From: an uncultured Brevundimonas sp.
GTDB lineage: Bacteria; Pseudomonadota; Alphaproteobacteria; Caulobacterales; Caulobacteraceae
Direction: 5' to 3'
DNA length: 64,000 nucleotides
Assembly (NCBI GenBank): GCA_964398675.1
Contig: CAYNNT010000001.1
Span: 38,541 to 102,540, forward strand
The first letter of the stretch is position 1, and every line of letters begins with the position of its first letter. Made by a program: the position numbers and the translations under genes. Positions 7,146 through 52,874 of the stretch are shown piece by piece. The notes beneath the pieces were generated by a model. That model ran no database searches, had not been told where the DNA came from, and saw nothing but the letters and a program-made list of their open reading frames with translations.

Positions 7146-7967
7146 TCAGGCGGTCGGGCGCTCGACGCCCGGGCGCAGGCGAAATGTCAGCAGGACGGCG
7201 CCCAACAGAACCGCCACGCCGGCCGCCAGCGCCACATAGGCCAGCATCGGGTTGCGCCCCTGCTCGGCGACGAACGCCCCCAGCAAGCCCCACGCGATCG
7301 GCAGCCCATAGGCGAGGGTCCGCAGGCGGTGTGTGACGCCGAGCGCAACAGCCCCCACCACGGCGATGGCCAGAATCGCCCAGACGGTCGGCGACAGGAC
7401 CTCGGGCAGCCAGCCGTTGCCGGTGGCCACGGTGATCAGATTGACCGGCGCCGCGACGGTCAGCCAGCCCGCCAGCATCGCCAGCGGCCACACGGTCATC
7501 CACCGGTCGCGATCGCCGCGGGGCAGGGCGCGGATGGCGCCGGCGTTGATCATCAAGGGTATCAGCAGGACGGCCAGAGACCCGAAGATCAGCACGATCG
7601 TCGCCATCTCCCAGTCGAAAGCGGCCGCCACGACCCACCAGCCGATGCCGAGCAGGGCGGCGACCGACGGCCAGCCCAGCCGATGGATCAGCAGGCTCTC
7701 ACCCGTCCGGGGCAGGGCCTGCCGCACGGCATAGACCACCAGCCAGAGATAGATCACGCCCCAGATGGCGAAGGCGTAGCCCGCGACCTTCAGGGTGGCG
7801 TCGCTGTCAGCGGCGAACTCGGCCGGGCTCTGGCCCCATTGAAGCAGGACCTGCGTCTGGCCGATCACGATGGCGAAGATCGTGGCGGCCAGGACGACCA
7901 GCCTGCGGGTCATCTGCGACGGGGTGGGACGTACAATGGACATGGCGGCTCCAGATGCGGTGGTCAC
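7146..7967 (-). CDS. tryptophan-rich multi-TM membrane protein (TspO/MBR-like)
   Basis: AGYAFAIWGVIY and GWLTVA motifs; about 8 hydrophobic segments; start may be 7943. Confidence 0.7.
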   Translation of the reverse strand: MTTASGAAMSIVRPTPSQMTRRLVVLAATIFAIVIGQTQVLLQWGQSPAEFAADSDATLKVAGYAFAIWGVIYLWLVVYAVRQALPRTGESLLIHRLGWPSVAALLGIGWWVVAAAFDWEMATIVLIFGSLAVLLIPLMINAGAIRALPRGDRDRWMTVWPLAMLAGWLTVAAPVNLITVATGNGWLPEVLSPTVWAILAIAVVGAVALGVTHRLRTLAYGLPIAWGLLGAFVAEQGRNPMLAYVALAAGVAVLLGAVLLTFRLRPGVERPTA

Positions 7968-39671: not shown

Positions 39672-40635
39672 TTTCGGTCACGACGGGACGATGATCCGAA
39701 CCCGTCGGGCGGCCGAGGCGGCGGCTGACGAACGCGAGGTCCGGCGAGGCGTAGACCTGGTCAATGGTGATTGCGAAGGCCGGGGGCAGGCTGGACGGCC
39801 AGGTGCCCGGGAAGCCCGGCGCAGGACGCAGGCCGATGTCTTTCCGGACCTGTTTGCCGATACGGGCGCTTGAGACGCTGTTGAAATCGCCGGCGACCAC
39901 CACAGGACCGCTCATTTCCTCAAGCAGCTGATCCAGCAACATCGTCTGGCTGATCTGGCCCCAGGATTCCTCGAAGGGCCAGGGGCGGGTCAGATGGATG
40001 CTGACGAGGTTGACCGGACCGAGCGGCGTCATGGCCGTCGCGCCGACCGCCTCGACCCGCACCTGTCGCGGGAACCCCACAAGCGGGTAGCGGGATGCAA
40101 TGACCGAACGCACGGCGCCGTTCGGACGACCGAACCGGGGGCTTGTGATCCTGTGGGGATAGTCGCCGACCAGGGCGTCCACATGTGACGCGGTGGCGTC
40201 GCCCAGCTCGATCAGCATGACGATGTCGGCGTCGGCCTGGCGGATGGAGGCGGCGATGGCGTCCAGGTCGTTGTTCCGGACCCAGAGATTGGCGGAATAG
40301 AGTCGGATGGAGGCCGCGCCCTCCACGGGCTTCGAGGCGGACGGAAACCACTGGGGAGACACGGCGATAAGCAGCAGGGCCGCCGGCGCGAGGGTCGCGG
40401 CCGCCCATCGCCGTCGGCGGAACAGCAGGAACAGGACCCCGAGCCCCAGGGTCGCGAACAGGGCGGGCGCGATGAACTGGGCGATGAGATCGGCGTACTG
40501 GTTTCGCATTCCGGTGAGCGTCACCAGCGCCATGAAGGTGGGCGCCGCGACCAGCCCGGCGAGCGAGAGCCTGACGGCCCATCCCATCGCTTTTGCGAAG
40601 GATGCTTGCGTTTCCGGGTGAACGGGGTTCGTCAT
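39652..40635 (-). CDS. membrane-anchored endonuclease/exonuclease/phosphatase family protein
   Basis: N-terminal TMs; SANL, GDFNS, IDQV, GSDHRPV. Confidence 0.88.
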   Translation of the reverse strand: MTNPVHPETQASFAKAMGWAVRLSLAGLVAAPTFMALVTLTGMRNQYADLIAQFIAPALFATLGLGVLFLLFRRRRWAAATLAPAALLLIAVSPQWFPSASKPVEGAASIRLYSANLWVRNNDLDAIAASIRQADADIVMLIELGDATASHVDALVGDYPHRITSPRFGRPNGAVRSVIASRYPLVGFPRQVRVEAVGATAMTPLGPVNLVSIHLTRPWPFEESWGQISQTMLLDQLLEEMSGPVVVAGDFNSVSSARIGKQVRKDIGLRPAPGFPGTWPSSLPPAFAITIDQVYASPDLAFVSRRLGRPTGSDHRPVVTEITRAAD

Positions 40636-40668
40636 GGCGCGTTACGGTCTCGCTTCAGGAGGACAGAC

Positions 40669-41142
40669 ATGGCCAGACGGTCCGTCGCGGATATCGAGAA
40701 GATCTGGTCCAATGTCGAGGGCGTCAAGAAACTGTCCGACCGGGCGGTGGGCATCGGCCCGTTCGGAATCGGGCTCGACGGCCTGCTGACATGGATACCC
40801 GTCGTCGGCACGGTCTACAGCGTCGGCGCCGCCGGCTGGTTGCTGATCCAGGCGGCCCAGGCCCGGGCCACGCCGGCGACCCTGCTGCGGATGATGACCT
40901 ATCTGGGGCTGGATACGGCGACGACGGCGGTGGGCGAGGTCATCCCGTTCGCTCCGGACGTTGTCGACCTTCTGTTCCCGGGTCACCTGATGGCGGCCAG
41001 GGCGCTGCAGAAGGACATCGAAAGCACGCACTGGGTCGAGGCGAACGAGCGCGAGGCGCGGGCGTCGGGCGCGCATGAGGGCCACGTGGCTGATATGCGC
41101 CGAAACCCGAAGCTGCGGCGGATCGTCTATCTGCACGACTGA
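40669..41142 (+). CDS. DUF4112 family membrane protein
   Basis: GIGLDGLLTWIPVVG; AGGAGG SD. Confidence 0.8.
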   Translation: MARRSVADIEKIWSNVEGVKKLSDRAVGIGPFGIGLDGLLTWIPVVGTVYSVGAAGWLLIQAAQARATPATLLRMMTYLGLDTATTAVGEVIPFAPDVVDLLFPGHLMAARALQKDIESTHWVEANEREARASGAHEGHVADMRRNPKLRRIVYLHD

Positions 41143-41203
41143 ACCGCTTGACGAAGTCGTGTCGCCGCCGCCAACTCGACACTCACCTACGCCGGACCTG
41201 TGA

Positions 41204-41764
41204 ATGAGCGCGATACTGACCCGAGATGAACTGGCCCTGGCGCTTGGCCGCACGGGCGAAGGGGACCGGGCTGCGTTCCGTCGCGTCTATGAGGCGACCT
41301 CCGCGAAGCTATTGGGCGTGACCCTGCGTATCTTGGCTGACCGACAGCTCGCCGAGGACGTTTTGCAGGACACCTATCTGACCGTATGGAGGAAGGCGGG
41401 AAGCTTTGATGCTTCACGCGCCAGCCCCATCACCTGGCTGGTGACCATCGCCCGCAACCGGGCGATCGACCGGCTGAGGTCCGGCGCGGCCATGCGTAAA
41501 TCGACCCCGATCGACGAAGCGGCGACGGTCATCGCGGACGACGCCCCTTCGCCGGCCCAGGTTCTGGAGACCGGCGACGACGTGCGCCGTCTGAACGACT
41601 GTCTCGGCCAGCTGGACGACAGGACCGGGGGGGCCATCCGCACGGCCTTCATCGAGGGCGTGACCTATGACGCCCTGGCCGTGCGCGAGAATGTGCCGCT
41701 GGGGACGATGAAGAGCTGGATCCGGCGCGGATTGATGCGGCTGAGGATGTGTCTCGAATCATGA
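41204..41764 (+). CDS. ECF sigma factor (SigK-like)
   Basis: AEDVLQD, WLVTIARNRAID, PLGTMKSWIRRGL. Confidence 0.93.
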   Translation: MSAILTRDELALALGRTGEGDRAAFRRVYEATSAKLLGVTLRILADRQLAEDVLQDTYLTVWRKAGSFDASRASPITWLVTIARNRAIDRLRSGAAMRKSTPIDEAATVIADDAPSPAQVLETGDDVRRLNDCLGQLDDRTGGAIRTAFIEGVTYDALAVRENVPLGTMKSWIRRGLMRLRMCLES

Positions 41765-42489
41765 CCGATCCCACGGACATCGGCGGAATGGATGAGGACC
41801 TGGCGCTGGCCGGGGAACTGGCCCTGCGCGTTCTCTCGCCGGAGGACGAGGCCGCGGCCCGCGCCCGCGAGGCGGCTGACCCTGCCTTCGCCGCTCACGT
41901 AGAGGCCTGGAACGAACGGCTCGGAGGGCTGGCCGATGGAATCGTATCGGTCGAGCCCTCGCCCTGGGTCTGGCCGCGGGTCGAGGCGGGGCTGACGCCG
42001 CCGGCCGCCGCCAATGACAACAGCGTGGTGTTCTGGCGCCGATGGGCCATCGGCTCGACGGGACTGCTGGCGGCCAGCGTGGCGGCGGTGGTCATGCTGG
42101 CCATGCAGCCGGCCCCGGCCCCGATCGCCCCGCCGGCTCCGGCGCCGGCGGTGATCCGGGTCGCGACCCTGACGCTGGAAAACGGCGCAGCGGCCATGAC
42201 CCTCGCCTATGACGCCAACACCGGGGAACTCTACCTGGCCCCGACCACGGAGATGGCGGGCGACAGGCGGGTGCCGCACCTGTGGCTGGTCATGCCGGAG
42301 GGCGGGGTCCAGCTGGTCGGCGCCATCGACGGCTCGACCACCTCGCGCCATAGCCTGGGCCAGGCCCTGTTCGGCCCCGCCGGACACGCCAACGCCGTCG
42401 CCGTCTCGATGGAGGCGCCCGGCCATACGCCGGCGCCGAACAAGCCGGACGGCCCGGTCGTCGCCCAGGGCGCGCTCCAGCGACTCTAG
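41761..42489 (+). CDS. RskA-like anti-sigma factor
   Basis: ATGA overlap with the sigma gene; LAGELAL, one TM, HLWLV, AVSMEAPG...PDGPVV. Confidence 0.88.
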   Translation: MTDPTDIGGMDEDLALAGELALRVLSPEDEAAARAREAADPAFAAHVEAWNERLGGLADGIVSVEPSPWVWPRVEAGLTPPAAANDNSVVFWRRWAIGSTGLLAASVAAVVMLAMQPAPAPIAPPAPAPAVIRVATLTLENGAAAMTLAYDANTGELYLAPTTEMAGDRRVPHLWLVMPEGGVQLVGAIDGSTTSRHSLGQALFGPAGHANAVAVSMEAPGHTPAPNKPDGPVVAQGALQRL

Positions 42490-42770
42490 CCTGCATCCGC
42501 AGGGGGGCTGCAGGCGTAGCTGTCATGACGGGTGCGGTAGCGGCTCGCGCAAGCGGGTCGCCTGGTCCTGACAGCCTGCGGGCCCGTCTGCGGGGAGGCC
42601 GTCCAGCCCTTCCAACTACGGTCTCCCCGCTACCTTTTCGCCGATTGTCAGCATATTGCGGCGAAGCAAGTCTCGGATTTTCCAGACATTGCTTTCGACG
42701 ACAGCGTCATGAGCCCGCCTGAGGAAGGCCGCCCGCCAGACTGATCTCCGACACGATTTCGGAGATTGCC

Positions 42771-44249
42771 ATGAGCGATGACCACAGCGCGCGGCTGGCC
42801 CTGCCCTATCTGGCGGCCGGGCAGATGCAGAAGCATGTCACCCTGAACGAGGCCCTGACCCGGCTGGACGCGATCGTCCAGACCGTCGTGGCCAGCCGGA
42901 CGACGACGGCCCAGCCGGGCGCGCCGGACGACGGCAGCCTGTGGATCCTGCCGTCCGGGGCGACGGGCGGCGACTGGACCACGCGGCCGGCGGGCGCGCT
43001 GATGCGGGCGGAGGGCGGCGGCTGGACGGCGGTGGAGGCCGGCGACGGCCTGATCGCCCTGGTGGAGGACGCCGACGAGGTCGTGGTGCGGCACGGCGGG
43101 GCCTGGACGCCGCTGGGCGCCCGGCTGGGCGTGGTGCAGGCGCTGACCCGGCTCGGGATCGGGACCACGGCGGACGCCGGCAACCCCTTTGCGGCCCGGC
43201 TGAACACCGCCCTTTGGACGGCGCTGGAGGTCGGGGCCGGAGGGACGGGCGACCTGAGGCTGACGCTGAACAAGGAGGCGGCCGGCGATGTCCTGTCGCT
43301 GCTGTTCCAGAGCGGCTGGAGCGGCCGGGCGGAACTGGGGCTGGTCGGGGATGACGACCTGAGGCTCAAGGTCAGCGCCGACGGTTCGAGCTGGCGCGAC
43401 GCCCTTGTCGTCGATCGCGCCACGGGCCGGATGACCCACGCGCTGGGCGCGGGGCGCCGGGCCGTGACGGCCTTCACCACCAGCGGAAGCTTCGCCGTGC
43501 CGGCATGGGCGCGCAGCATCGAGGCGGTCGCGGTCGGCGGCGGCGGCGGTGGCGGGGCCGGGGCCTTCGGTGCGTCCGGGTCCCGCTTCGGCGGAGGCGG
43601 GGGCGGCGCCGGCGGGACCAGCCGGTGTGAATGGGCGGCGGACCTGCTGGGCGGAACGCTGGATGTGGTTGTAGGGGCCGGCGGCGCGGGCGGCAGCGCG
43701 GCAGCGGGCTCGAACGGCGGCAACAGCACGGTCTCCATGGGCGGAACCCGGGTGCTGGCCGCGGGCGGCGGCGGCGGGGGCGGGCGGGGCGACAGCACGG
43801 GCGGGGCGTCGGGAACGCCGGGCGTGGGCGAGCTGGTCGCCAACGCGGGCGGCGCTTCCAGCGTGACGGCGACGGGCGGGACGGGCCGAAGCCTTGACCG
43901 GCCGGACGGGCCGGGCGGCGGCGGGGCCGGCGGCGGTCTGGACGGCGCGGGGGCGGCGCGGGCGGGCGGCGCCGGCGGCGACGGCGGCATCGTGGCGGTC
44001 AGGGCCCTTGGCGGCGCCGGCGGGTCAGGCGCGGCGGGGTCGGCGGGCACGGCGGCGCCCCAGCCGACCCTGCACTGGGCCGGAGGCGGCGGGGGAGGCG
44101 GCGGCGCGGCGGCTGCCGGGTCAGGCCACGCGGGCGCTGCGGGCGGGTCGATCGGCGGCGGAGGCGGCGGTGGCGGAGCCGGCGTCACCGCGGGCGGCAG
44201 CGGCGGCGCGGGCGCGCCCGGCGTCGTCTGGCTGGTCGCCTTCGGATGA
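42771..44249 (+). CDS. DUF2793 domain protein with Gly-rich C-terminal domain (phage/GTA fibre or head-spike-like)
   Basis: RLALPYL..GQMQKHVTLNEAL.RLD; SLLFQSGWSGRAELGL.GDDDL; polyglycine tracts ending GGAGAPGVVW. Confidence 0.88.
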   Translation: MSDDHSARLALPYLAAGQMQKHVTLNEALTRLDAIVQTVVASRTTTAQPGAPDDGSLWILPSGATGGDWTTRPAGALMRAEGGGWTAVEAGDGLIALVEDADEVVVRHGGAWTPLGARLGVVQALTRLGIGTTADAGNPFAARLNTALWTALEVGAGGTGDLRLTLNKEAAGDVLSLLFQSGWSGRAELGLVGDDDLRLKVSADGSSWRDALVVDRATGRMTHALGAGRRAVTAFTTSGSFAVPAWARSIEAVAVGGGGGGGAGAFGASGSRFGGGGGGAGGTSRCEWAADLLGGTLDVVVGAGGAGGSAAAGSNGGNSTVSMGGTRVLAAGGGGGGGRGDSTGGASGTPGVGELVANAGGASSVTATGGTGRSLDRPDGPGGGGAGGGLDGAGAARAGGAGGDGGIVAVRALGGAGGSGAAGSAGTAAPQPTLHWAGGGGGGGGAAAAGSGHAGAAGGSIGGGGGGGGAGVTAGGSGGAGAPGVVWLVAFG

Positions 44250-44401
44250 GCCCCGCCATGAGCCCCGCCGATCCCTGGCTGCTGGATGATGAGGTCTGGG
44301 ACAGCCCCGGCCGCCTGACGGACGCCGACCTGTTCACCCACGCCAGCCCCGGCTGGCGTCGCGGCGACGCCCCCCTTGATGATCCGGAGGACGACCGATG
44401 A
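44246..44401 (+). CDS. 51-aa acidic Trp-containing small protein
   Basis: MSPAMSPADPWLLDDEVWDSPGRLTDADLFTHASPGWRRGDAPLDDPEDDR; ATGA overlaps at both ends. Confidence 0.6.
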   Translation: MSPAMSPADPWLLDDEVWDSPGRLTDADLFTHASPGWRRGDAPLDDPEDDR

Positions 44402-44673
44402 GCGCGCCTTCAACGCCCGGGGCCCCGTTGCTGGCGGAGGGACGCTGGCTGTGGCGCAGGCTGTATGTCTTCGCGACCAGCGGCGCGGCCTGGCTGCTGC
44501 TCGACCGTCTGATCGAGGTGACGCCTCCCGAGGCCGCGCCGCGGCTGGCGCAGGGGCTGATGGCGCTGCTGGCGCTGGTGCTGGTCCTCTATCTGGTGGC
44601 GCCGACGGCCCAGCAGCTGATCGCGACGCTGGCGGTGCTGCGGCCCCGGATCGACGAGGAGGGCCGGTCATGA
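44398..44673 (+). CDS. putative holin-like 2-TM protein
   Basis: 91 aa, two hydrophobic segments, charged C-terminus, directly before the endolysin; GGAGG SD. Confidence 0.55.
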   Translation: MSAPSTPGAPLLAEGRWLWRRLYVFATSGAAWLLLDRLIEVTPPEAAPRLAQGLMALLALVLVLYLVAPTAQQLIATLAVLRPRIDEEGRS

Positions 44674-45053
44674 GCTTTCGTCTGTCCGGGCGATCCCTCA
44701 AGCGGCTGGACGGCGTGCATCCGCGCCTTGTCGCCCTGGTGCGGGAGGCCGCGGCCCTGAGCCCGGTGGAGTTCATGGTGACCGAGGGCCTGCGCACGCC
44801 CGAACGCCAGGCCGCCCTCGTCCGGGCCGGGGCCAGCCGCACCCGGCGGTCGCGCCACCTGACCGGCCACGCGGTCGATGTCGCGGCCCTGGTCGACGGC
44901 CAGGTCCGATGGGACTGGCCGCTGTATCCGCGCATCGCCGCGGCGTTCAAGGCGGCGGCGGCGCGTCAGGGCACGGCCATGATCTGGGGCGGCGACTGGA
45001 CCAGCCTGAGGGACGGCCCCCATTTCGAGCTGGACCGGAAGGCCTTCCCATGA
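44670..45053 (+). CDS. M15 family (L-Ala-D-Glu) peptidase endolysin
   Basis: EGLRT.ERQ, SRHLTGHAVD, WGGDW..LRDGPHFEL. Confidence 0.92.
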   Translation: MSFRLSGRSLKRLDGVHPRLVALVREAAALSPVEFMVTEGLRTPERQAALVRAGASRTRRSRHLTGHAVDVAALVDGQVRWDWPLYPRIAAAFKAAAARQGTAMIWGGDWTSLRDGPHFELDRKAFP

Positions 45054-45529
45054 AGACGCCGGCGCTATTGCGGACCCTGACCCCATGGGGCTGGGCGCTG
45101 GTCGTGGCCGGCGTGCTGGCTGCGGCGCTGATCGGCCTGCACGGACTGGGCTTTCGCTGGGACCCCTTGAGGCTGGCCGAACGGCGGCTGGCGGCGGCCG
45201 AGGCCGGGGCTTCAGCCGCCGCCGCGGACGCCGCCGCGCGCCGACTCGAGGTCGACGGCGCTGCGGACCAGACGCGGCGTCTTGAAGTACGTCACCAACA
45301 GACCGTGGCCGTGGCGCGGGAGACCGCGCGGGCCACGACACAGGCCAGGAGGGCCGATGATGCCGATACCCCGCTGGACCCTGATCGCGTGGCTCGCCTC
45401 GCCGGTCATGACCGCGAGCTGTGCCGCCTCGCTCCCGCCGTCTGCGGAGCCGCCCCGTCTGACCCTGCCGGAGGCGGCGACCAGACCCTGCGTTCTGGAG
45501 CGACTGCCGCAAGCGCCGACCCTCGCTGA
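45050..45529 (+). CDS. Rz-like inner-membrane spanin (putative)
   Basis: One N-terminal TM, then Ala/Arg-rich coiled coil and two C-terminal Cys; follows the endolysin. Confidence 0.65.
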   Translation: MKTPALLRTLTPWGWALVVAGVLAAALIGLHGLGFRWDPLRLAERRLAAAEAGASAAAADAAARRLEVDGAADQTRRLEVRHQQTVAVARETARATTQARRADDADTPLDPDRVARLAGHDRELCRLAPAVCGAAPSDPAGGGDQTLRSGATAASADPR

Positions 45530-45683
45530 CCTTGAGGTCGCCTATGTCGAGCGGGGGGCGCGGCTGGTCGCCTGCGAGAACGCCCGGGCTTCTGCGGTCG
45601 AGACCCTGACGGCCGAGCGGGCCTTGCAGGATCGGTGGCGGCGCGCGAGCGGAGCGCGGCCCGGGGCGGTGATCCGGCCCTGA
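45357..45683 (+). CDS. Rz1-like outer-membrane spanin lipoprotein (putative)
   Basis: Overlaps the Rz-like gene in the +1 frame; AGGAGG SD; lipobox-like TASC; Pro-rich with two further Cys. Confidence 0.65.
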   Translation: MMPIPRWTLIAWLASPVMTASCAASLPPSAEPPRLTLPEAATRPCVLERLPQAPTLADLEVAYVERGARLVACENARASAVETLTAERALQDRWRRASGARPGAVIRP

Positions 45684-45728
45684 CCGGCAGGCGCAGACCG
45701 GCCCGGCCGACCCGCCGGGCAATCCCTT

Positions 45729-45875
45729 CCGGCACGACCTGCCCACTACCCGGCAGAAGGTGCCTGGCCTTGGCAGGTTTTGCCGGAAGGCAGGGGCCGT
45801 AGAGCCAAAAAACCTGAGGAAAAACAACAATGGAGGCGGGGCCGTCGATGTCTGGCGGGTGGCCCTGTCCTTGCT
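45729..45875 (+). promoter_or_regulatory. three ftr-like enhancer sites plus sigma54 promoter of flagellin 1
   Basis: GGCA-N5-TGCC at 45731, 45752, 45772; TGGCCCTGTCCTTGCT (GG-N10-GC) 45860-45875. Confidence 0.8.
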
Positions 45876-45951
45876 CAATGGAAACCCGAGCAGAACGCTC
45901 CTGACCGCCAAAATGGCGTCAGACATGTCGAAGACACAGAGGACAGCCAAA

Positions 45952-46644
45952 ATGGCTAACAGCATCAATACGAACGTCGGCGCCATGGTTGCGCTGCAGA
46001 ACCTGAACGCGACCGGCCGCGACCTGAAGGTCACGCAGGACCGCGTCAGCACCGGCCTGAAGGTCGGCTCCGCCAAAGACAATGGCGCGATCTGGGCCGT
46101 GTCCCAGAACCAAAAAGCCAACATGGGCGTGTTGAACGCCACCCGTAACGCGCTGCAGCGGACCATGTCCGTCAATGACGTGGGTCTGGCCGCCGGCGAC
46201 ACCATCATGGACGCCCTGCGTCAGATGAAGGAACTCGCCGCCGGTCCGTCAAGCGCCGCCCGGGATGCGGATCTGGCTGCCCTGAGGGCCGAGGTCGTCG
46301 CCGCCAAGGCCGCTGCTGTCTTTGACGGCACCGCCGCCCTCAGCGGTCTGACCCTGACCATCAGCGCCGCACCGACCGCCGGTGAAATCGACGCCGATCT
46401 GGCCTCGGCCATCACCGCCCTGCAGGCCCTCGGCACCTCGGCCAAGTCGACCGAGCGCTCGCTGACCTTCAACGACAAGCTCCAGGACGCCATCGAATCC
46501 GGCATCGGCAACCTGGTCGACGCCGACCTGGCCAAGGAAAGCGCTCGCCTGACGGCTCTGCAGACGAAGCAGCAGCTGGGCGTGCAGGCGCTCTCGATCG
46601 CCAACCAGTCGGGCTCGATCCTGCTCGGCCTGTTCCGCAACTAG
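45952..46644 (+). CDS. flagellin, short form (230 aa)
   Basis: SINTNVGA..ALQNL, STGLKV.SAKDN, LVDADLAKESA, ALSIANQ. Confidence 0.95.
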   Translation: MANSINTNVGAMVALQNLNATGRDLKVTQDRVSTGLKVGSAKDNGAIWAVSQNQKANMGVLNATRNALQRTMSVNDVGLAAGDTIMDALRQMKELAAGPSSAARDADLAALRAEVVAAKAAAVFDGTAALSGLTLTISAAPTAGEIDADLASAITALQALGTSAKSTERSLTFNDKLQDAIESGIGNLVDADLAKESARLTALQTKQQLGVQALSIANQSGSILLGLFRN

Positions 46645-46719
46645 GTCCGGGAACGCCCGCGGCCTCCTGACCCGAGGACATCCCGGCCACGGCCGGTCAA
46701 ACGATCCGATGATCAAACG

Positions 46720-46748
46720 AAGGGTCCCCGCGCATGCGGGGGCCCTTT
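46720..46748 (+). terminator. intrinsic terminator after flagellin 1
   Basis: AAGGGTCCCCGC-gcat-GCGGGGGCCCTTT. Confidence 0.7.
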
Positions 46749-46874
46749 GTCGATGGGACCTGGCTCACCCGGAGAGGGGGCGCGACCCGGCCAGACGCGC
46801 CGGAATTCGGGCCGTGAGGCGGTCGGACGCGCCGGATCCTTGTCCCGGAGCGCTGCCGTATTGAAGCCCTCCGT

Positions 46875-47023
46875 CCCGGCACGACCTGCCGACCACCCGG
46901 CAAATACTGCCCGAAGCCCGGCAGATTCTGCAGGGCCAACAACGTGATGAACAAGAACTAACGTAGCAAATTCAATGGTGGCCGCTCTGGCATGGGGGGG
47001 CGCCGGATGGCTCCGTCCTTGCT
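46875..47023 (+). promoter_or_regulatory. three ftr-like enhancer sites plus sigma54 promoter of flagellin 2
   Basis: GGCA-N5-TGC(C/A) at 46878, 46899, 46920; AT-rich spacer; TGGCTCCGTCCTTGCT 47008-47023. Confidence 0.8.
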
Positions 47024-47098
47024 TGTACCCCAGCGGGCAGAATGCTCCCGATCGCCAAAACGGCGTCGGAAATGTCGAAGACAAAAAGGACAGCCAAA

Positions 47099-47788
47099 AT
47101 GGCTAATAGCATCAACACGAATGTCGGCGCCCTGGTGGCGCTGCAGAACCTGAATCAGACCAGCCGCGATCTGGCTATGACGCAAAACCGCGTCAACACT
47201 GGTCAGAAGGTCTCGTCCGCCAAGGACAACGGGGCGATCTGGGCTACGGCCGAGAACCAAAAAGCCAACATGCAGGTGCTCAACACCACCCGCAACACGC
47301 TGCAGCGGACCCAGTCCGTGAATGACGTGGGTCTGGCCGCCGGCGACACCATCATGGACGCCCTGCGTCAGATGAAGGAACTCGCTGCCGGTCCGTCCAG
47401 CACGGCTCGCGACGCCGACCTCAACGCACTCAAGGCCGAAGTCGCTGCCGCCAAGGCGGCCGCGGTGTTCGACGGCACGGCTGCGCTGGGTTCGCTGACC
47501 ATGACCTTCGCCGCCACCCCGACCGGCGCTGAAGTCGATACCGCGATCACCAACGCGATCTCGGCCCTGCAGACCCTCGGCACTTCGTCCAAGTCGACGG
47601 AGCGTTCGCTGGCCTTCAACGACAAGCTCCAGGACGCCCTGGAAGCCGGCATCGGCAACCTGGTCGACGCCGACCTGGCCAAGGAAAGCGCCCGCCTGAC
47701 GGCTCTGCAGACGAAGCAGCAGCTGGGCGTGCAGGCGCTGTCGATCGCGAACCAGTCGAGCTCGATCCTGCTCGGCCTGTTCCGCTAA
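47099..47788 (+). CDS. flagellin, short form (229 aa)
   Basis: Same N- and C-terminal flagellin motifs as copy 1. Confidence 0.95.
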   Translation: MANSINTNVGALVALQNLNQTSRDLAMTQNRVNTGQKVSSAKDNGAIWATAENQKANMQVLNTTRNTLQRTQSVNDVGLAAGDTIMDALRQMKELAAGPSSTARDADLNALKAEVAAAKAAAVFDGTAALGSLTMTFAATPTGAEVDTAITNAISALQTLGTSSKSTERSLAFNDKLQDALEAGIGNLVDADLAKESARLTALQTKQQLGVQALSIANQSSSILLGLFR

Positions 47789-47905
47789 CCACCGGGGAAG
47801 TGGGCGTAGCCGCTCGCGGCTCCGCCCGCTTCGCCAAACCCTGAGCAGAACGCTCCCGGCAGCCAAAACGGCGTCGGACATGTCGAAGACAAAAGGACTA
47901 TCCCA

Positions 47906-48595
47906 ATGGCTAACAGCATCAATACGAACGTCGGCGCCCTGGTGGCGTTGCAGAACCTGAACCAGACCAGCCGCGATCTGGCTGTCACGCAAAACCGCGT
48001 GAACACGGGTCAGAAGGTCTCGTCCGCCAAGGACAACGGGGCCATCTGGGCCACCGCCCAGAACCAAAAAGCCAACATGCAGGTGCTCAACACCACCCGC
48101 AACACGCTGCAGCGGACCCAGTCCGTGAATGACGTGGGTCTGGCCGCCGGCGACACCATCATGGACGCCCTGCGTCAGATGAAGGAACTCGCCGCCGGTC
48201 CCGCCAGCACGGCTCGCGACGCCGACCTCGCCGCCCTGCGGACTGAAGTCGTCGCTGCTCAGGCCGCGGCTGTCTTCGACGGCACGGCCGCTCTCAGCGG
48301 TCTGACCCTGACCATCGCCGCCGCTCCGACCGCCGGTCAGATCGACGCCGATCTGGCCTCGGCGATCTCGGCCCTGCAGACCCTCGGCACTTCGTCCAAG
48401 TCGACGGAGCGTTCGCTGGCCTTCAACGACAAGCTCCAGGACGCCCTGGAAGCCGGCATCGGCAACCTGGTCGACGCCGACCTGGCCAAGGAAAGCGCCC
48501 GCCTGACGGCTCTGCAGACGAAGCAGCAGCTGGGCGTGCAGGCGCTGTCGATCGCGAACCAGTCGAGCTCGATCCTGCTCGGCCTGTTCCGCTAA
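47906..48595 (+). CDS. flagellin, short form (229 aa)
   Basis: Same N- and C-terminal flagellin motifs as copy 1. Confidence 0.95.
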   Translation: MANSINTNVGALVALQNLNQTSRDLAVTQNRVNTGQKVSSAKDNGAIWATAQNQKANMQVLNTTRNTLQRTQSVNDVGLAAGDTIMDALRQMKELAAGPASTARDADLAALRTEVVAAQAAAVFDGTAALSGLTLTIAAAPTAGQIDADLASAISALQTLGTSSKSTERSLAFNDKLQDALEAGIGNLVDADLAKESARLTALQTKQQLGVQALSIANQSSSILLGLFR

Positions 48596-48689
48596 CCCAC
48601 GGGGAAGGGACGGGGCCGTCCACGGCTCCGTCCCGACTTCCCATCGCACCTAACCGGGAGACGTCGGCCTAGTCGCCGACGTTCAGGAG

Positions 48690-48974
48690 ATGAATGCAGA
48701 TGCAACGATAAGGGCGGTCCCGGCAGTCACTGTCGAAACACCGCTGCAGTCCGGAGCCGATCAGGAATCCAGATCCAGGACCGCTGAGGATGCTGAACGC
48801 CAGGCCCGCTATCGGCTGGTGATCGAGCAGGGCCCCCGCGCGGGGTCTTTTGTCTACAAGACGCTGGACCGGGAAACCGGCGAGATCGTCCGGCAAATGC
48901 CGAGTGAAGAAGTGCTCAAGTTGAAGGAGCGCAACGACTACGGAGTCGGCGCAGTGATCAACACCACCGCCTGA
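48690..48974 (+). CDS. FlaG-like protein
   Basis: FVYKTLDRETGEIVRQMPSEEVL matches the FlaG pattern; located among flagellins. Confidence 0.75.
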   Translation: MNADATIRAVPAVTVETPLQSGADQESRSRTAEDAERQARYRLVIEQGPRAGSFVYKTLDRETGEIVRQMPSEEVLKLKERNDYGVGAVINTTA

Positions 48975-49031
48975 CACGTCAGTCAGGACGGACTTTACCC
49001 GGGCCGCAGCCGCGCGTCCGGTCACGTTGCG

Positions 49032-49039
49032 TTAACCAT
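49032..49039 (+). promoter_or_regulatory. CtrA-type site (TTAACCAT) upstream of flagellin 4
   Basis: TTAACCAT about 55 bp before the ATG; no GG-N10-GC sigma54 motif recognised here. Confidence 0.5.
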
Positions 49040-49093
49040 ACGCTCACGACTCGCGGCATAGCCTGTCCCTGAAACGATCCAGGGCCGAACGCC

Positions 49094-49918
49094 ATGACCA
49101 ACAGCGTCCACTCCAACTCTTCCGCGCTCATCGCGCTGCAAAACCTCAATCAGATCAGTGATCGGATGGCGGCCACGCAGAACCGCGTCAGCACGGGCCT
49201 GAAGGTTGGCGGAGCCAAGGACAATTCGGCGGTCTGGGCGATTGCACAAAATCAGCGCGCCGACCTGGGGGCGCTCGGGGCGGTGAAGACCAGCCTCGAC
49301 CGGGCCACCTCGCTGGCCGACGTGACCCTGGCGGCCGGGGAGGCGATCTCCGATCTGATCATCCAGATGCGCCAGAAGGCCGTGGCCGCCTCCGACCTGT
49401 CGCAGACGCCCGAATCCCGCGCGGCCTACAACGACGACTTCCAGAGCCTCGTGCGGTCGGTTCAGCAGTTCGCGGACAGCGCCTCGTTTGACGGGGTGAA
49501 CCTGCTCGACAACTCCCTGACGGCGCCGCTCGACTTCCTCGCCAACGTCGATGCCGTCGACACGATTTCGATCGACCCGCACAATTTCACCGAGGCCGGT
49601 CTGGGGCTCGACACGCAGAACCTGCTTCTGCCCGCCGCCGCGGCGACCGCGCTCGGCGTGATCGACACGGCGCTGGCGACGGTGAACTCCGGCCTGGCCT
49701 CGCTGGGCGCGCAGGCCAAGCAGATCGAAACGCACAATACCTTCGTCTCCAAGCTGATGGACTCGCTGGAAACCGGCATCGGCAAGCTGGTCGACGCTGA
49801 TCTGGCGAAGGAAAGCGCCCGCCTTCAGGCGTTGCAGGTGCAGCAGCAGCTGGGCGCGCAGGCGCTGTCGATCGCGAACCAGGCCCCGCAGATCATCCTG
49901 TCGCTGTTCAAGAGCTAG
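49094..49918 (+). CDS. flagellin, normal length (274 aa), divergent from the other three
   Basis: STGLKV, ASFDGVNLL, LVDADLAKESARL. Confidence 0.95.
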   Translation: MTNSVHSNSSALIALQNLNQISDRMAATQNRVSTGLKVGGAKDNSAVWAIAQNQRADLGALGAVKTSLDRATSLADVTLAAGEAISDLIIQMRQKAVAASDLSQTPESRAAYNDDFQSLVRSVQQFADSASFDGVNLLDNSLTAPLDFLANVDAVDTISIDPHNFTEAGLGLDTQNLLLPAAAATALGVIDTALATVNSGLASLGAQAKQIETHNTFVSKLMDSLETGIGKLVDADLAKESARLQALQVQQQLGAQALSIANQAPQIILSLFKS

Positions 49919-50118
49919 GCGGGTCGGCGTATCCCGGCGGGACCGATCTGAATCGCGGCGGGACGTCGACGGGTCCCGATTCCGTACAGTGAAAGCAATG
50001 ATTTCAAGACATTGACGAAGGCGGTCTTCACGGCGTCCTCCTCATCCAGCGCGCCGTTAACGGGTGCGCAAGATCATTGTTCCCTGAGTCGCGCGCAAAG
50101 TCGCTCCGCGGCCGGACG

Positions 50119-50133
50119 TTAAGCGCCCGTTAC
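50119..50133 (+). promoter_or_regulatory. CtrA-like box upstream of the FlaEY-like gene
   Basis: TTAA-GCGCCCG-TTAC. Confidence 0.55.
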
Positions 50134-50168
50134 GGTTGGCGGGTCACAATGACGGCCGGGAGCCGCCT

Positions 50169-52874
50169 GTGATCAACAACAGTTATCTGCTCGGGTTGTA
50201 CGGAGGGACCGCGGACACCTCGTCCACGTCCAGCGGAACCACGACCACGACCCGGAAGACGCAGCCGACCGCGCCCTGGTCAGCGGGGGCCAAGGTTCCC
50301 GAGCAAAGCGCCCTGGTGCGGGCGGCGCTGGCGGGAAACCGCCTGATCAATGAAGGCACCGAACGTCTCGACGTGCCGGGCGCATCGACGGACTATCGAA
50401 AGCTGTTCGCTCTCTACAAGGGCCTGGACTCCCTGACGGCGCTCGCCACCCGGGCGGACCAGCGGGGCGTGAGCGCCAGCGAGACGGCCCAGATCCGCCA
50501 GCGCTTCAGCGCCGGGCTTTCAGAAGTCAGCGGCTATCTGCGGACGGCCGGCTTTGACGGCATCCGTCTGGTGGAGGGCGTTTCGTCCACGACCGCCAAG
50601 ACGACCGCCTCTGTGCCGCGCGATGCGACCCGCATCGTCACCCGGCCGATCCACGACGGGCCGCTGACGTCATCCGTCGCTTCCTTCGAGGGCGATGTCC
50701 GGTTCGAGATCACCATCGGAACCCTCAACGGCGACACGACGATCCCGATCGATCTGGCGGATATGGGAGCCCAGACCCGTACGTTCGACGACGTGCTGTC
50801 CCACATCAACGGCAAGCTGGCCGACGCCGGCGTCGCCACCCGGTTCGGACGGGAAAACGTCACCGGCCCGCCGCGCACGATCAAGGCGGGGACCAAGACG
50901 ATCACCCTGCCGGCGCGGTCCGACCAGTGGGCGCTGGTGATCCAGGGCACGAATGTCGAATCCGTCCGGTTCGCGACGACGCAGAAGTCCGACGCCGTCT
51001 ACGTCGTCCAGGGCACGGGGAGCGGGGGCGGGAACGAACTGCTGAAGTTCCAGAGCGACGGCGGCGCCGCCCCTGAACCGCTCGATATCGGCCTGCAGAC
51101 CGGATGGGTCGCCGGTCGCGCGTCGCAGACCGCCCTGCCGAAGGGGGTCGAGACGGTGCGGGCGAGCGCGGTCGCCGCGGACGGGTCGTTGTGGATGGTC
51201 GCGGACGTCGAGTCCGCGCCGGGCGAACAGCCGGTGAAGGGCGAGCGCGACGTCGCCCTGATGAAGTTCGACCCGTCGGGCCGTCTGGTGGCGACGCGCA
51301 TGCTCGGCGCCGCGGATACGGCCAGCGGCTATGCGATCGCCATCGCCGACGACGGGCGGGTGGCCGTGGCGGGATCGGTCACGGGCGCGCTCGAGGCCGG
51401 GGTCAAGCCGGCCGACGCCGATCTGGCCGACAGCTTCGTGACCGTCTTCGACGGGGCGGGCGAAGAGCTCTGGACCCAAAGGCGTGGCGCCAAGGCGGCC
51501 GACGAGGCCACGGCCGTGTCTTTCGGCGCAGATGGCAGGGTCTATGTCGCCGGACGGGCGAAGTCGTCCATGCCCGGCGCGTCCGGACTCGGCGGCTGGG
51601 ACGGGTATCTGCAGGGCTTTACCGCCACCCAGGCGCACAGTCTGGCGCCGTTGGTCGGCGCGGCGGTTTCGATCGACCAGTTCGGAACGGCCAGCGACGA
51701 CAGCGTCAGGGCGATGACGACCGAGGGCACGTCCATCTACACCGCCGGAGTCGAAAGCGGCCGGGTGGTGGTGCGCCACTATACGCCCGACGTCGACGGC
51801 CGGCCGAGCCTGGCGGCAGTCCGGGATCTGGGCGCCGCCAGCGGGGACGTTACGGGGATCGCCGTCGCCGATGGACGGGTCGTCCTGACCGGCACAACCA
51901 GCAACGCCGCCCTCGACATCGCGACGGTGAACACAGCCCATTCCGGCGGCACAGATGCCTTCGTGGCGGTGCTGGAGGCCGATCTTTCGGCCAGCGCCTC
52001 GGATCGTCTGACCTATGTCGGCGCCGCCGGGGACGACACCGTTTCGGACATGAAGGTCCACGACGGGAAGGTCTGGCTGACCGGGCTCGCCGACCGGCCG
52101 CTCGGGGCCAAGGCGGAGGATCCCCGGCAGGGCTATCTGACCCGGCTGGACCCGCTGACGGGGGCGGTCGAATGGACCCGGACCTGGTCCGGCGCGAACC
52201 AGCAGGCCGCGCCCCTTACGCTTGCCGTCGCCACCGACGGCGCGAGCGTGCTGGACCGCCTGGGTCTGCCCGATGGTCGTGTCTCGGCCGGGGATTCCAA
52301 GATCCTGACGACCGTGACGGCGGCCCGGCCCGGCGACCGGTTCTATGTGACCCCCGCCGACGGCAGCCGGTCGCGGGCGGTCACGATCGACGCCAGGGAT
52401 ACGCTGCAGACCCTGGCCAAGAAGATCGAACAGGCGAGTTTCGGCCAGTTGAGCGTGACGGTGGTCACCGACACGCTCAAGAGCGCCACCGGAGAACTGA
52501 TCACCAGCGGACGCCCCCAGAGGCTGTCCATCGTTCCGCGGACCGGGCGGGAGGGCGCCACCCTGACCAGCGGCGAAACCGGCCGGGATGCGCTTTCGGC
52601 CCTGGGCCTTTCGCCCGGCCTGATCAGCCCCAAGCCGGGAACCGGCGACCTGAAGATCTTCGCCATGGCGCTGCCGGCCTCCCTGTCGCTGTCCGGCGCG
52701 GATGACATCAAGGCGTCGATCAAGTCGCTGCAGGACGCCATGACCGTGGTCCGGAGCGCCTATCGCGGGCTGGCCCCCGGCGCGAACAAGCCGGCGGTCA
52801 CCGGCGCGGCGCCGGCCTATCTCACGGCCCAGCTCGCCAACTACCAGGCGGCGCTCGCCCGCCTCGGCGGATAG
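50169..52874 (+). CDS. FlaEY-like flagellar protein with beta-propeller repeats
   Basis: About 900 aa, no signal peptide; repeated G-x-A-x-D/DAFV blade motifs; amphipathic C-terminal helix; flagellin locus. Confidence 0.7.
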   Translation: MINNSYLLGLYGGTADTSSTSSGTTTTTRKTQPTAPWSAGAKVPEQSALVRAALAGNRLINEGTERLDVPGASTDYRKLFALYKGLDSLTALATRADQRGVSASETAQIRQRFSAGLSEVSGYLRTAGFDGIRLVEGVSSTTAKTTASVPRDATRIVTRPIHDGPLTSSVASFEGDVRFEITIGTLNGDTTIPIDLADMGAQTRTFDDVLSHINGKLADAGVATRFGRENVTGPPRTIKAGTKTITLPARSDQWALVIQGTNVESVRFATTQKSDAVYVVQGTGSGGGNELLKFQSDGGAAPEPLDIGLQTGWVAGRASQTALPKGVETVRASAVAADGSLWMVADVESAPGEQPVKGERDVALMKFDPSGRLVATRMLGAADTASGYAIAIADDGRVAVAGSVTGALEAGVKPADADLADSFVTVFDGAGEELWTQRRGAKAADEATAVSFGADGRVYVAGRAKSSMPGASGLGGWDGYLQGFTATQAHSLAPLVGAAVSIDQFGTASDDSVRAMTTEGTSIYTAGVESGRVVVRHYTPDVDGRPSLAAVRDLGAASGDVTGIAVADGRVVLTGTTSNAALDIATVNTAHSGGTDAFVAVLEADLSASASDRLTYVGAAGDDTVSDMKVHDGKVWLTGLADRPLGAKAEDPRQGYLTRLDPLTGAVEWTRTWSGANQQAAPLTLAVATDGASVLDRLGLPDGRVSAGDSKILTTVTAARPGDRFYVTPADGSRSRAVTIDARDTLQTLAKKIEQASFGQLSVTVVTDTLKSATGELITSGRPQRLSIVPRTGREGATLTSGETGRDALSALGLSPGLISPKPGTGDLKIFAMALPASLSLSGADDIKASIKSLQDAMTVVRSAYRGLAPGANKPAVTGAAPAYLTAQLANYQAALARLGG

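Follow-up and report, generated by a model that had tools for sequence, protein, structure and literature searches.

The DNA analysed here (the window) is a stretch of 64,000 nucleotides from an uncultured Brevundimonas sp. (Caulobacteraceae; GenBank assembly GCA_964398675.1, contig CAYNNT010000001.1, positions 38,541 to 102,540, forward strand). It carries an operon in which a tail fibre gene is followed by a predicted lysis cassette. A reading of the letters alone (the original prediction) had taken this for a domesticated lysis operon, spanins included, serving release of a gene transfer agent (GTA) or programmed lysis. Six open reading frames (ORFs) were confirmed; with their predicted promoter they are arranged as follows:

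42716..42722, + strand: CGCCTGA element, predicted activator-dependent promoter element
42737..42742, + strand: -10-like hexamer CAGACT, predicted promoter
42743..42767, + strand: predicted RNA hairpin over the Shine-Dalgarno sequence GGAG (42761-64)
42771..44249, + strand: tail fibre of 492 amino acids (aa); PF10983, PF21722 and PHROG tail families
44246..44401, + strand: 51-aa acidic protein, net charge -9, conserved (ORF in 48/53 loci)
44398..44673, + strand: holin-like membrane protein, 91 aa, family unnamed
44670..45053, + strand: 127-aa endolysin of the M15 L-Ala-D-Glu endopeptidase type
45050..45529, + strand: 159-aa predicted inner-membrane spanin, Rz/LysB-like, with an N-terminal transmembrane (TM) helix, an alanine-rich periplasmic region and an invariant C125
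45357..45683, + strand: 108-aa putative Rz1/LysC-like spanin of the overlapped type, an outer-membrane lipoprotein (lipobox Cys22) encoded in the +1 frame

Five of the ORFs are chained by four ATGA overlaps (44246-49, 44398-401, 44670-73 and 45050-53), as originally described and as read in the sequence. The lipoprotein ORF, likewise correctly placed in the +1 frame of the preceding gene, starts within the Rz-like gene and ends past it; its likely start is the ATG at 45357 or 45360, not the TTG at 45282. The operon is flanked by an extracytoplasmic function (ECF) sigma/anti-sigma pair on one side, found at the operon site in 8/20 loci, and by a flagellin cluster on the other. That no prophage surrounds it was borne out: no phage family was matched by 51 other window ORFs scanned (E 1e-12) or by the four flanking ORFs, the three PF00589 integrases of the genome all lie on contigs other than that of the operon, and a repeat scan of 40000-50200 gave no att-like pair flanking it. 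The long direct repeats in that interval fall within flagellin genes, flagellin promoters and Gly-rich codons. The GC content had been called host-like, which is roughly but not exactly right (0.71-0.79 for the operon genes, slightly above the 0.688 of the genome).

The 492-aa protein contains a DUF2793 domain (PF10983, E 7e-23) and a Gly_rich_2 domain (PF21722), laid out as an N-terminal baseplate-binding DUF2793 region and a C-terminal Gly-rich domain. Its N-terminus matches PDB entry 8gtc_S (E 2e-10), labelled 'Ribonuclease III', a known mis-annotation of Rcc00171, the DUF2793 protein described as required for transfer by Rhodobacter capsulatus's own GTA (RcGTA; PMC5026251). Rcc00171 is reported to be a tail fibre of the baseplate, to which the megatron binds (PMC7296036), and co-evolution of DUF2793 with GTA genes has been described (PMC10883770). 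DUF2793 marks the baseplate tail fibre, and the initial view of a GTA or phage decoration protein was wrong and was dropped in favour of a tail fibre of the Rcc00171 type (PMC5026251, PMC7296036). The C-terminal halves vary among relatives, Mtd and S74 domains among them, as expected of a receptor-binding fibre. An AlphaFold model of the fibre computed without an alignment was unusable (pLDDT 38.5). The 51-aa ORF, which overlaps the holin-like start by ATGA in 48/49 loci, matched no family in Pfam- and PHROG-type searches; that its product helps in fibre assembly is a guess.

The 91-aa protein had been described as a 2-TM protein; of the two helices, only the second passes a hydropathy cut-off of 1.5. 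It matched nothing in Pfam or PHROG. A profile search returned 304 relatives; a PHROG scan of 47 of the 150 distant homologues listed assigned no family, and the ESM Atlas gave unnamed clusters only. Neither the holin-like protein nor the Rz1-like protein of the window had a direct match in the phage collection, and the holin-like alignment had none among viral contigs; two holin-like relatives used as queries matched the phages Carli, R16L and R22L. The first two have a DUF2793 gene upstream of the holin-like gene, which is immediately followed by an SLT or GH19 enzyme and two genes resembling spanins (hhalign 97.5%). Among 52 genomes of other genera the family was found in four, each time in a prophage lysis cassette as read by eye; these prophages we take to be Mu-like. 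In other genera the slot is filled by PHROG holins. Because its relatives adjoin endolysin and spanin genes in phages and in the four prophages, the 91-aa protein is taken as a holin by context and is called holin-like here. At seven loci (L050, L054, L055, L066, L071, L072 and L075) the fibre is followed by a membrane protein of 170-190 aa that differs from the 91-aa family; where scanned, it belongs to phrog_6637 (function unassigned), with an M15_3 enzyme beside it or absent. It is a candidate second holin family, sometimes without an endolysin.

The M15 protein matches Peptidase_M15_4 (E 6e-13) and the phrog_465 endolysins (E 3.5e-57), and its best solved relative is ChiX (5opz, E 4e-37). 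Residues H63, D70, D115 and H118 are invariant in 55/55 sequences, so that the predicted catalytic site of this putative endolysin appears intact. H63, D70 and H118 are presumably the zinc ligands of the M15 motif.

The design of the last two genes, an inner-membrane protein with an N-terminal TM helix overlapped in the +1 frame by an outer-membrane lipoprotein, is that of the overlapped spanin class (PMC3556154). The 159-aa protein of the window itself matched no family in Pfam or PHROG. Its Rz1-like partner gave no match to the phrog_456 Rz-like spanins, which were matched by 17/27 Rz1-like members. C22 of the lipobox, C45 and C73 are invariant in 27/27 of these proteins, and the Rz1-like ORF is in the +1 frame at 43/44 loci. 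The TM helix, lipobox, invariant cysteines, reading frame and phrog_456 relatives together favour the original prediction that the cassette includes spanins.

The endolysin was matched in 134/151 Brevundimonas genomes (113/121 of the high-quality ones; E < 1e-50 in 126 genomes), mostly as a single copy. The fibre, holin-like and M15 genes lie upstream of flagellin in 20/20 loci, with the spanin genes in 14 of these, and the M15-to-Rz ATGA overlap is kept in 44/45 loci. All six genes have a median pairwise dN/dS of less than 1, namely 0.14-0.24 for M15, 0.36-0.38 for the fibre N-terminus, 0.40-0.52 for the holin-like gene, 0.43-0.71 for the non-overlapping spanin parts and 0.64-0.77 for the 51-aa ORF; these pairwise values are crude, with GC3 near 0.9 and dS near 0.8. 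Two of the M15 matches listed contain a stop. Synteny and purifying selection, which had been proposed as checks, are therefore both observed; the patchy distribution with decay that would mark a prophage remnant is not, given 134/151 genomes, a single site and invariant catalytic residues.

The cassette varies among genomes. In divergent Brevundimonas a Tlde1-domain protein, a lysozyme or an unassigned protein takes the place between the holin-like and Rz genes; after the fibre, other genera have lysozyme or M15_3 enzymes as well as PHROG holins and Rz1-like lipoproteins. Partial losses were seen at L106 and L111 (G051, G120) and at L114 (G047), where either only the fibre and holin-like genes remain or the endolysin alone is deleted; the latter type retains the holin-like and spanin genes. 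Genus g25 is called Caulobacter-type on account of its terminase promoters, in which the elements published for C. crescentus occur; the lysis genes were matched in 0/20 of its loci. In the 13 of these with full ORF lists a fibre of 245 aa has host genes after it, the labels of which are our own presumptive assignments.

The original prediction had called for a search of the genome for a GTA head-tail cluster and gafYZ- or gafA-like activators, and both a cluster and GafZ are present. The cluster lies on two contig ends, with terminases, portal and protease on C62 and capsid to megatron on C1 (2596-12438); capsid and portal are single-copy. Some 69 kb of C1 separate the operon from the megatron, and it sits among host genes, without an integrase. 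GafZ is encoded on C103 (PF20057, E 8e-33), and a 118-aa ORF upstream of gafZ is assumed, from its position and appearance, to be GafY. The gafY-like and gafZ genes (G000:C103:7250-9913, L034) are divergent from a neighbouring gene that looks like ctrA, and TTAA repeats lie in the shared intergenic region.

Across 251 genomes of the family, fibre and megatron occur together in 104, the fibre alone in 17, the megatron alone in none and neither in 130; both are present in the same 10 of 25 genera and both absent from the other 15. In C. crescentus the fibre homologue CCNA_02456 is reported to rise from 21 to 20,545 RPKM (reads per kilobase per million; about 1000-fold) upon gafYZ induction (PMC9632790, supplement 10); from that report and a PF10983 match in the C. 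vibrioides control we infer that CCNA_02456 is the DUF2793 gene. GafY is described as binding about 18 accessory promoters, and GafZ the main promoter only (PMC11150451). Second copies of megatron and DUF2793 genes, apparently in RcGTA-like prophages, were seen together at G118:C1:629033-633579 and at L037 (G272).

Upstream of the fibre gene, the -10-like hexamer pattern is present in 70/77 fibre leaders vs 33/270 control upstream regions. The GCCTGA of the CGCCTGA element begins 20 nt before the -10-like box, a spacing equal to that in Brevundimonas promoters of the GTA small-terminase gene, gtaT. A matrix was built from 30 gtaT promoters in full and core versions, with the genome to be scored left out. 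By using the full matrix, 18/39 fibre upstream regions scored above 8 bits and 23/39 above 0, compared with 0/32 flagellin, 0/20 dnaJ and 0/17 ycgN control regions above 0. With the core matrix 27/39 fibre regions exceeded 8 bits, as did no flagellin, no dnaJ and one ycgN region; the promoter of the window scored 17.9. Fibre promoters also resembled the gtaT promoter of their own genome (0.484) more than those of other genomes (0.413; 28 genomes, 0/3000 permutations, three controls without effect). The predicted fibre promoter thus resembles the GTA terminase promoter and co-varies with it within genomes. The gtaT promoters contain the CGCTGG half of the GafZ element as published, and the fibre consensus lacks it, as expected if GafZ binds the main promoter only (PMC11150451). 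A composite of a GafY core and an IHF site, seemingly unique in the genome to the fibre and gtaT promoters, was rejected: it had been derived from those two sites, and its 10-mer, which sits in the loop of a probable upstream terminator, occurs in 0/20 other Brevundimonas fibre leaders.

A predicted hairpin directly after the hexamer buries the ribosome site of the fibre gene. The probability that GGAG is unpaired is 0.02 in 21 Brevundimonas leaders (the first 20 loci and the window) vs 0.37 in 200 control genes, and it is below 0.2 in 95% of fibre leaders vs 24% of controls. The predicted transcription start falls within the 5' arm, and a start 6-9 nt past the hexamer would strip this arm from the transcript. 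When leaders are truncated, the ribosome site becomes more accessible in control genes as well (from 0.37 to 0.58), so that only burial in long transcripts is specific. At the Brevundimonas gtaT gene itself the ATG lies 6 nt after the -10 box (G000:C62:13485-13499, L118-L157), which suggests that the gtaT mRNA is leaderless. The same ATG position is found in Caulobacter-type promoters, whereas the start codon published for C. crescentus lies at +251.

Taken together, conservation, the GTA cluster and GafZ, co-occurrence of fibre and megatron, and a gtaT-like promoter support the view of a domesticated GTA-release operon. It is considered probable, with good confidence, that this fibre and lysis operon, held at one site across Brevundimonas, is a detached attachment-and-release module of the GTA of the genus. 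Few cells would switch on the GTA; in these, GafY, probably with IHF, would activate both the terminase promoter and the operon promoter. Transcription starting inside the leader hairpin would free the ribosome site of the fibre gene, which read-through from upstream genes would leave buried. The fibre would then join the baseplate (megatron). Opening of the inner membrane would fall to the holin-like protein, cleavage of the L-Ala-D-Glu bond in peptidoglycan to the predicted zinc endopeptidase and removal of the outer membrane to the putative Rz/Rz1 pair, so that particles are released.

Several observations weigh against this assignment. The spanin pair is intact in 42 of 55 loci and missing or broken in 13, and the holin-like protein belongs to no curated family. 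The promoter of the window has a modest score of -0.7 bits with the full matrix, ranking 39 of 3105 upstream regions; the matrix columns were picked after the alignment had been viewed, and related genomes are non-independent. The matrix method also failed a positive control, in which Caulobacter-type fibre promoters scored a median of -24 bits with the gtaT matrix of their own genus, although CCNA_02456 is GafYZ-induced. The megatron of the window genome is split near residue 820 into two overlapping ORFs of 867 and 411 aa (G000:C1:8717-12438, L032), whereas relatives have a single ORF of some 1230-1270 aa; the end that binds the fibre falls within the second ORF. The split is either a real frameshift or an assembly error, and the GTA of this genome may accordingly be defective. 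Finally, among 33 genomes chosen for an absent capsid or an absent endolysin, 13 have no capsid and no full megatron and yet keep the fibre, holin-like and M15 genes and GafZ.

These 13 genomes bear most directly on the first alternative, in which the operon is controlled by GafY and independent of particles, lysis of a subpopulation releasing DNA or free fibre for biofilm or adhesion control. Such a role would explain why the operon and GafZ outlast the main cluster. Both spanins are retained in 10 of the 13; dN/dS in these genomes is somewhat higher, still low (M15 0.24 vs 0.14), and the sister pair G021/G080 gives 0.26 at dS 0.45 on the holin and M15 genes, in favour of this alternative. 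The cluster site was read in 12 of the 13 genomes and in G036 and G091. Among these 14 sites there are 12 internal deletions with differing end points, one site cut by a contig end and one clean loss, in G091. The remnants at the 12 deletions, those of G021 and G080 included, are about as similar to the queries as intact orthologues are. From the differing end points and the well-preserved remnants the deletions look recent and independent, and the cluster-deleted genomes are scattered over the operon tree. The retention of the operon is explained if a 14-kb target was lost recently and independently, with a time lag. G091 (93% complete, 330 contigs), from which the cluster is cleanly gone, has no match to fibre, M15 or GafZ either, and the 15 genera that lack both fibre and megatron also speak against a particle-independent role, which is judged unlikely. 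At L132 (G064), L134 (G004), L121, L123 and L120 the large terminase is deleted at the start of the cluster, with the gtaT promoter and portal kept; in G064 and G004 the remaining head-tail cluster is intact.

The second alternative is a system of the type 10 secretion kind, as encoded by Serratia chiWXYZ, which would export a protein cargo and be unrelated to the GTA. The four-gene design is the same, with a stand-alone holin, an L-Ala-D-Glu endopeptidase and two spanins (PMC4259817), and the holin-like protein and peptidoglycan hydrolase of the window likewise stand outside any prophage. The endolysin is close to ChiX, as noted above, and the spanins, which are often lost in Brevundimonas loci, are reported as dispensable in chiWXYZ (PMC4259817). 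However, ChiX-like enzymes were found in 183 phage records and are thus ordinary phage endolysins too. The only linked non-lysis genes are the GTA-type fibre and the 51-aa ORF; no chitinase, toxin or other cargo enzyme and no dedicated regulator adjoins the operon. It is tail-fibre-led, uses another holin family and has a promoter like that of the GTA terminase, and a secretion role is accordingly rated improbable. A decaying distal end of a former prophage, to which the gene order of the tail-operon end of Carli and R16L and the gene losses at some loci might point, is the least credible alternative and largely refuted, since the operon is single-copy at a fixed, genus-wide site without a nearby integrase or att sequence, with invariant catalytic residues, dN/dS below 1 and just the two stop-containing M15 matches among those listed.

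A GTA module of attachment and release has partial counterparts in known systems. RcGTA likewise has its DUF2793 fibre gene (rcc00171) and its endolysin-holin release genes (rcc00555-rcc00556) away from the head-tail cluster (PMC5026251). In R. capsulatus, however, these are two separate loci, the lysis locus having two genes, whereas in Brevundimonas fibre and lysis genes form a single operon with translational coupling, its lysis part comprising an M15 endopeptidase, an Rz/Rz1 pair and a holin-like protein that belongs to no curated family. The C. crescentus GTA, from the same family, shares a homologous main cluster, GafYZ, CGCTGG in the terminase promoter and a distal DUF2793 fibre (PMC9632790; PMC11150451). 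C. crescentus is reported to have neither holin nor endolysin, LypABC being required and the lytic effector downstream unknown (PMC9632790, PMC13236601); Brevundimonas, in contrast, has a full predicted lysis set. LypABC is reported in 4/11 Caulobacter species (PMC13236601). PF01223, used here as an assumed proxy for LypC, was found in 3/36 Brevundimonas and 9/36 Caulobacter-type genomes, and a trypsin-plus-endonuclease protein, assumed to be LypC-like, had no match in the Brevundimonas genome of the window. PF13191 was discarded as a probe for LypB because it was unspecific.

Among phages, the overlapped +1-frame spanins recall lysB/lysC of P2 and those of phiCbK (PMC3556154). In Sphingomonas phage Carli and Erythrobacter phage R16L a DUF2793 gene is followed by a member of this holin-like family, an endolysin gene and genes resembling spanins; the Brevundimonas operon differs from such cassettes in being chromosomal and fixed, without phage replication, integration or head genes. 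The predicted leader resembles that of T4 gene e, where read-through transcripts have their ribosome site hidden in a hairpin and transcription from a promoter begins inside its 5' arm (PMC3014915). In Brevundimonas, however, it is the fibre gene that the hairpin precedes; the start site is a prediction, and both the holin-like and the M15 gene carry GGAG sites of their own.

No report on this operon was found by searching titles and the beginnings of abstracts (Brevundimonas with GTA, holin, endolysin or DUF2793; GTA with spanin or Caulobacterales), a search that left subscription journals mostly uncovered. New here are a terminase-promoter matrix that picks out fibre-lysis promoters and the co-variation of the two promoters within genomes. 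The cassette is a conserved, ordinary-looking one of the predicted holin-endolysin-spanin type with familiar parts; its location is unusual and informative. It bears on how the GTAs of Caulobacteraceae leave the cell, since Brevundimonas, a neighbour of the Caulobacter genus, has a predicted complete classical lysis set on its fibre operon. The operon also yields an unnamed holin-like family, a predicted Brevundimonas GTA promoter signature and a predicted translational safety lock.

A wider proposal is favoured, if only slightly: that in Caulobacteraceae the ancestral module for GTA release is this operon of fibre, holin, endolysin and spanins. A shared, co-evolving promoter would link it to the head-tail cluster and a hairpin like that of T4 gene e would insulate it from read-through. 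The endolysin slot would have been refilled repeatedly from phages (M15_4, M15_3, lysozyme, Tlde1-type), and loss in Caulobacter would explain the immune-derived lysis route of C. crescentus. If this is true, Brevundimonas would have a GTA that uses spanins, none of which was found described within the literature searched.

Two further features of the window were noted. Four tandem flagellin genes lie at 45952-49918; three of them are short, at 229-248 aa, and resemble one another to 85-94% over 300 nt. A 94-aa ORF in the same interval presumably resembles FlaG. At 7758-7846 a tRNA-SeC was called by ARAGORN on the + strand, inside a 273-aa ORF of the minus strand, and is probably spurious.

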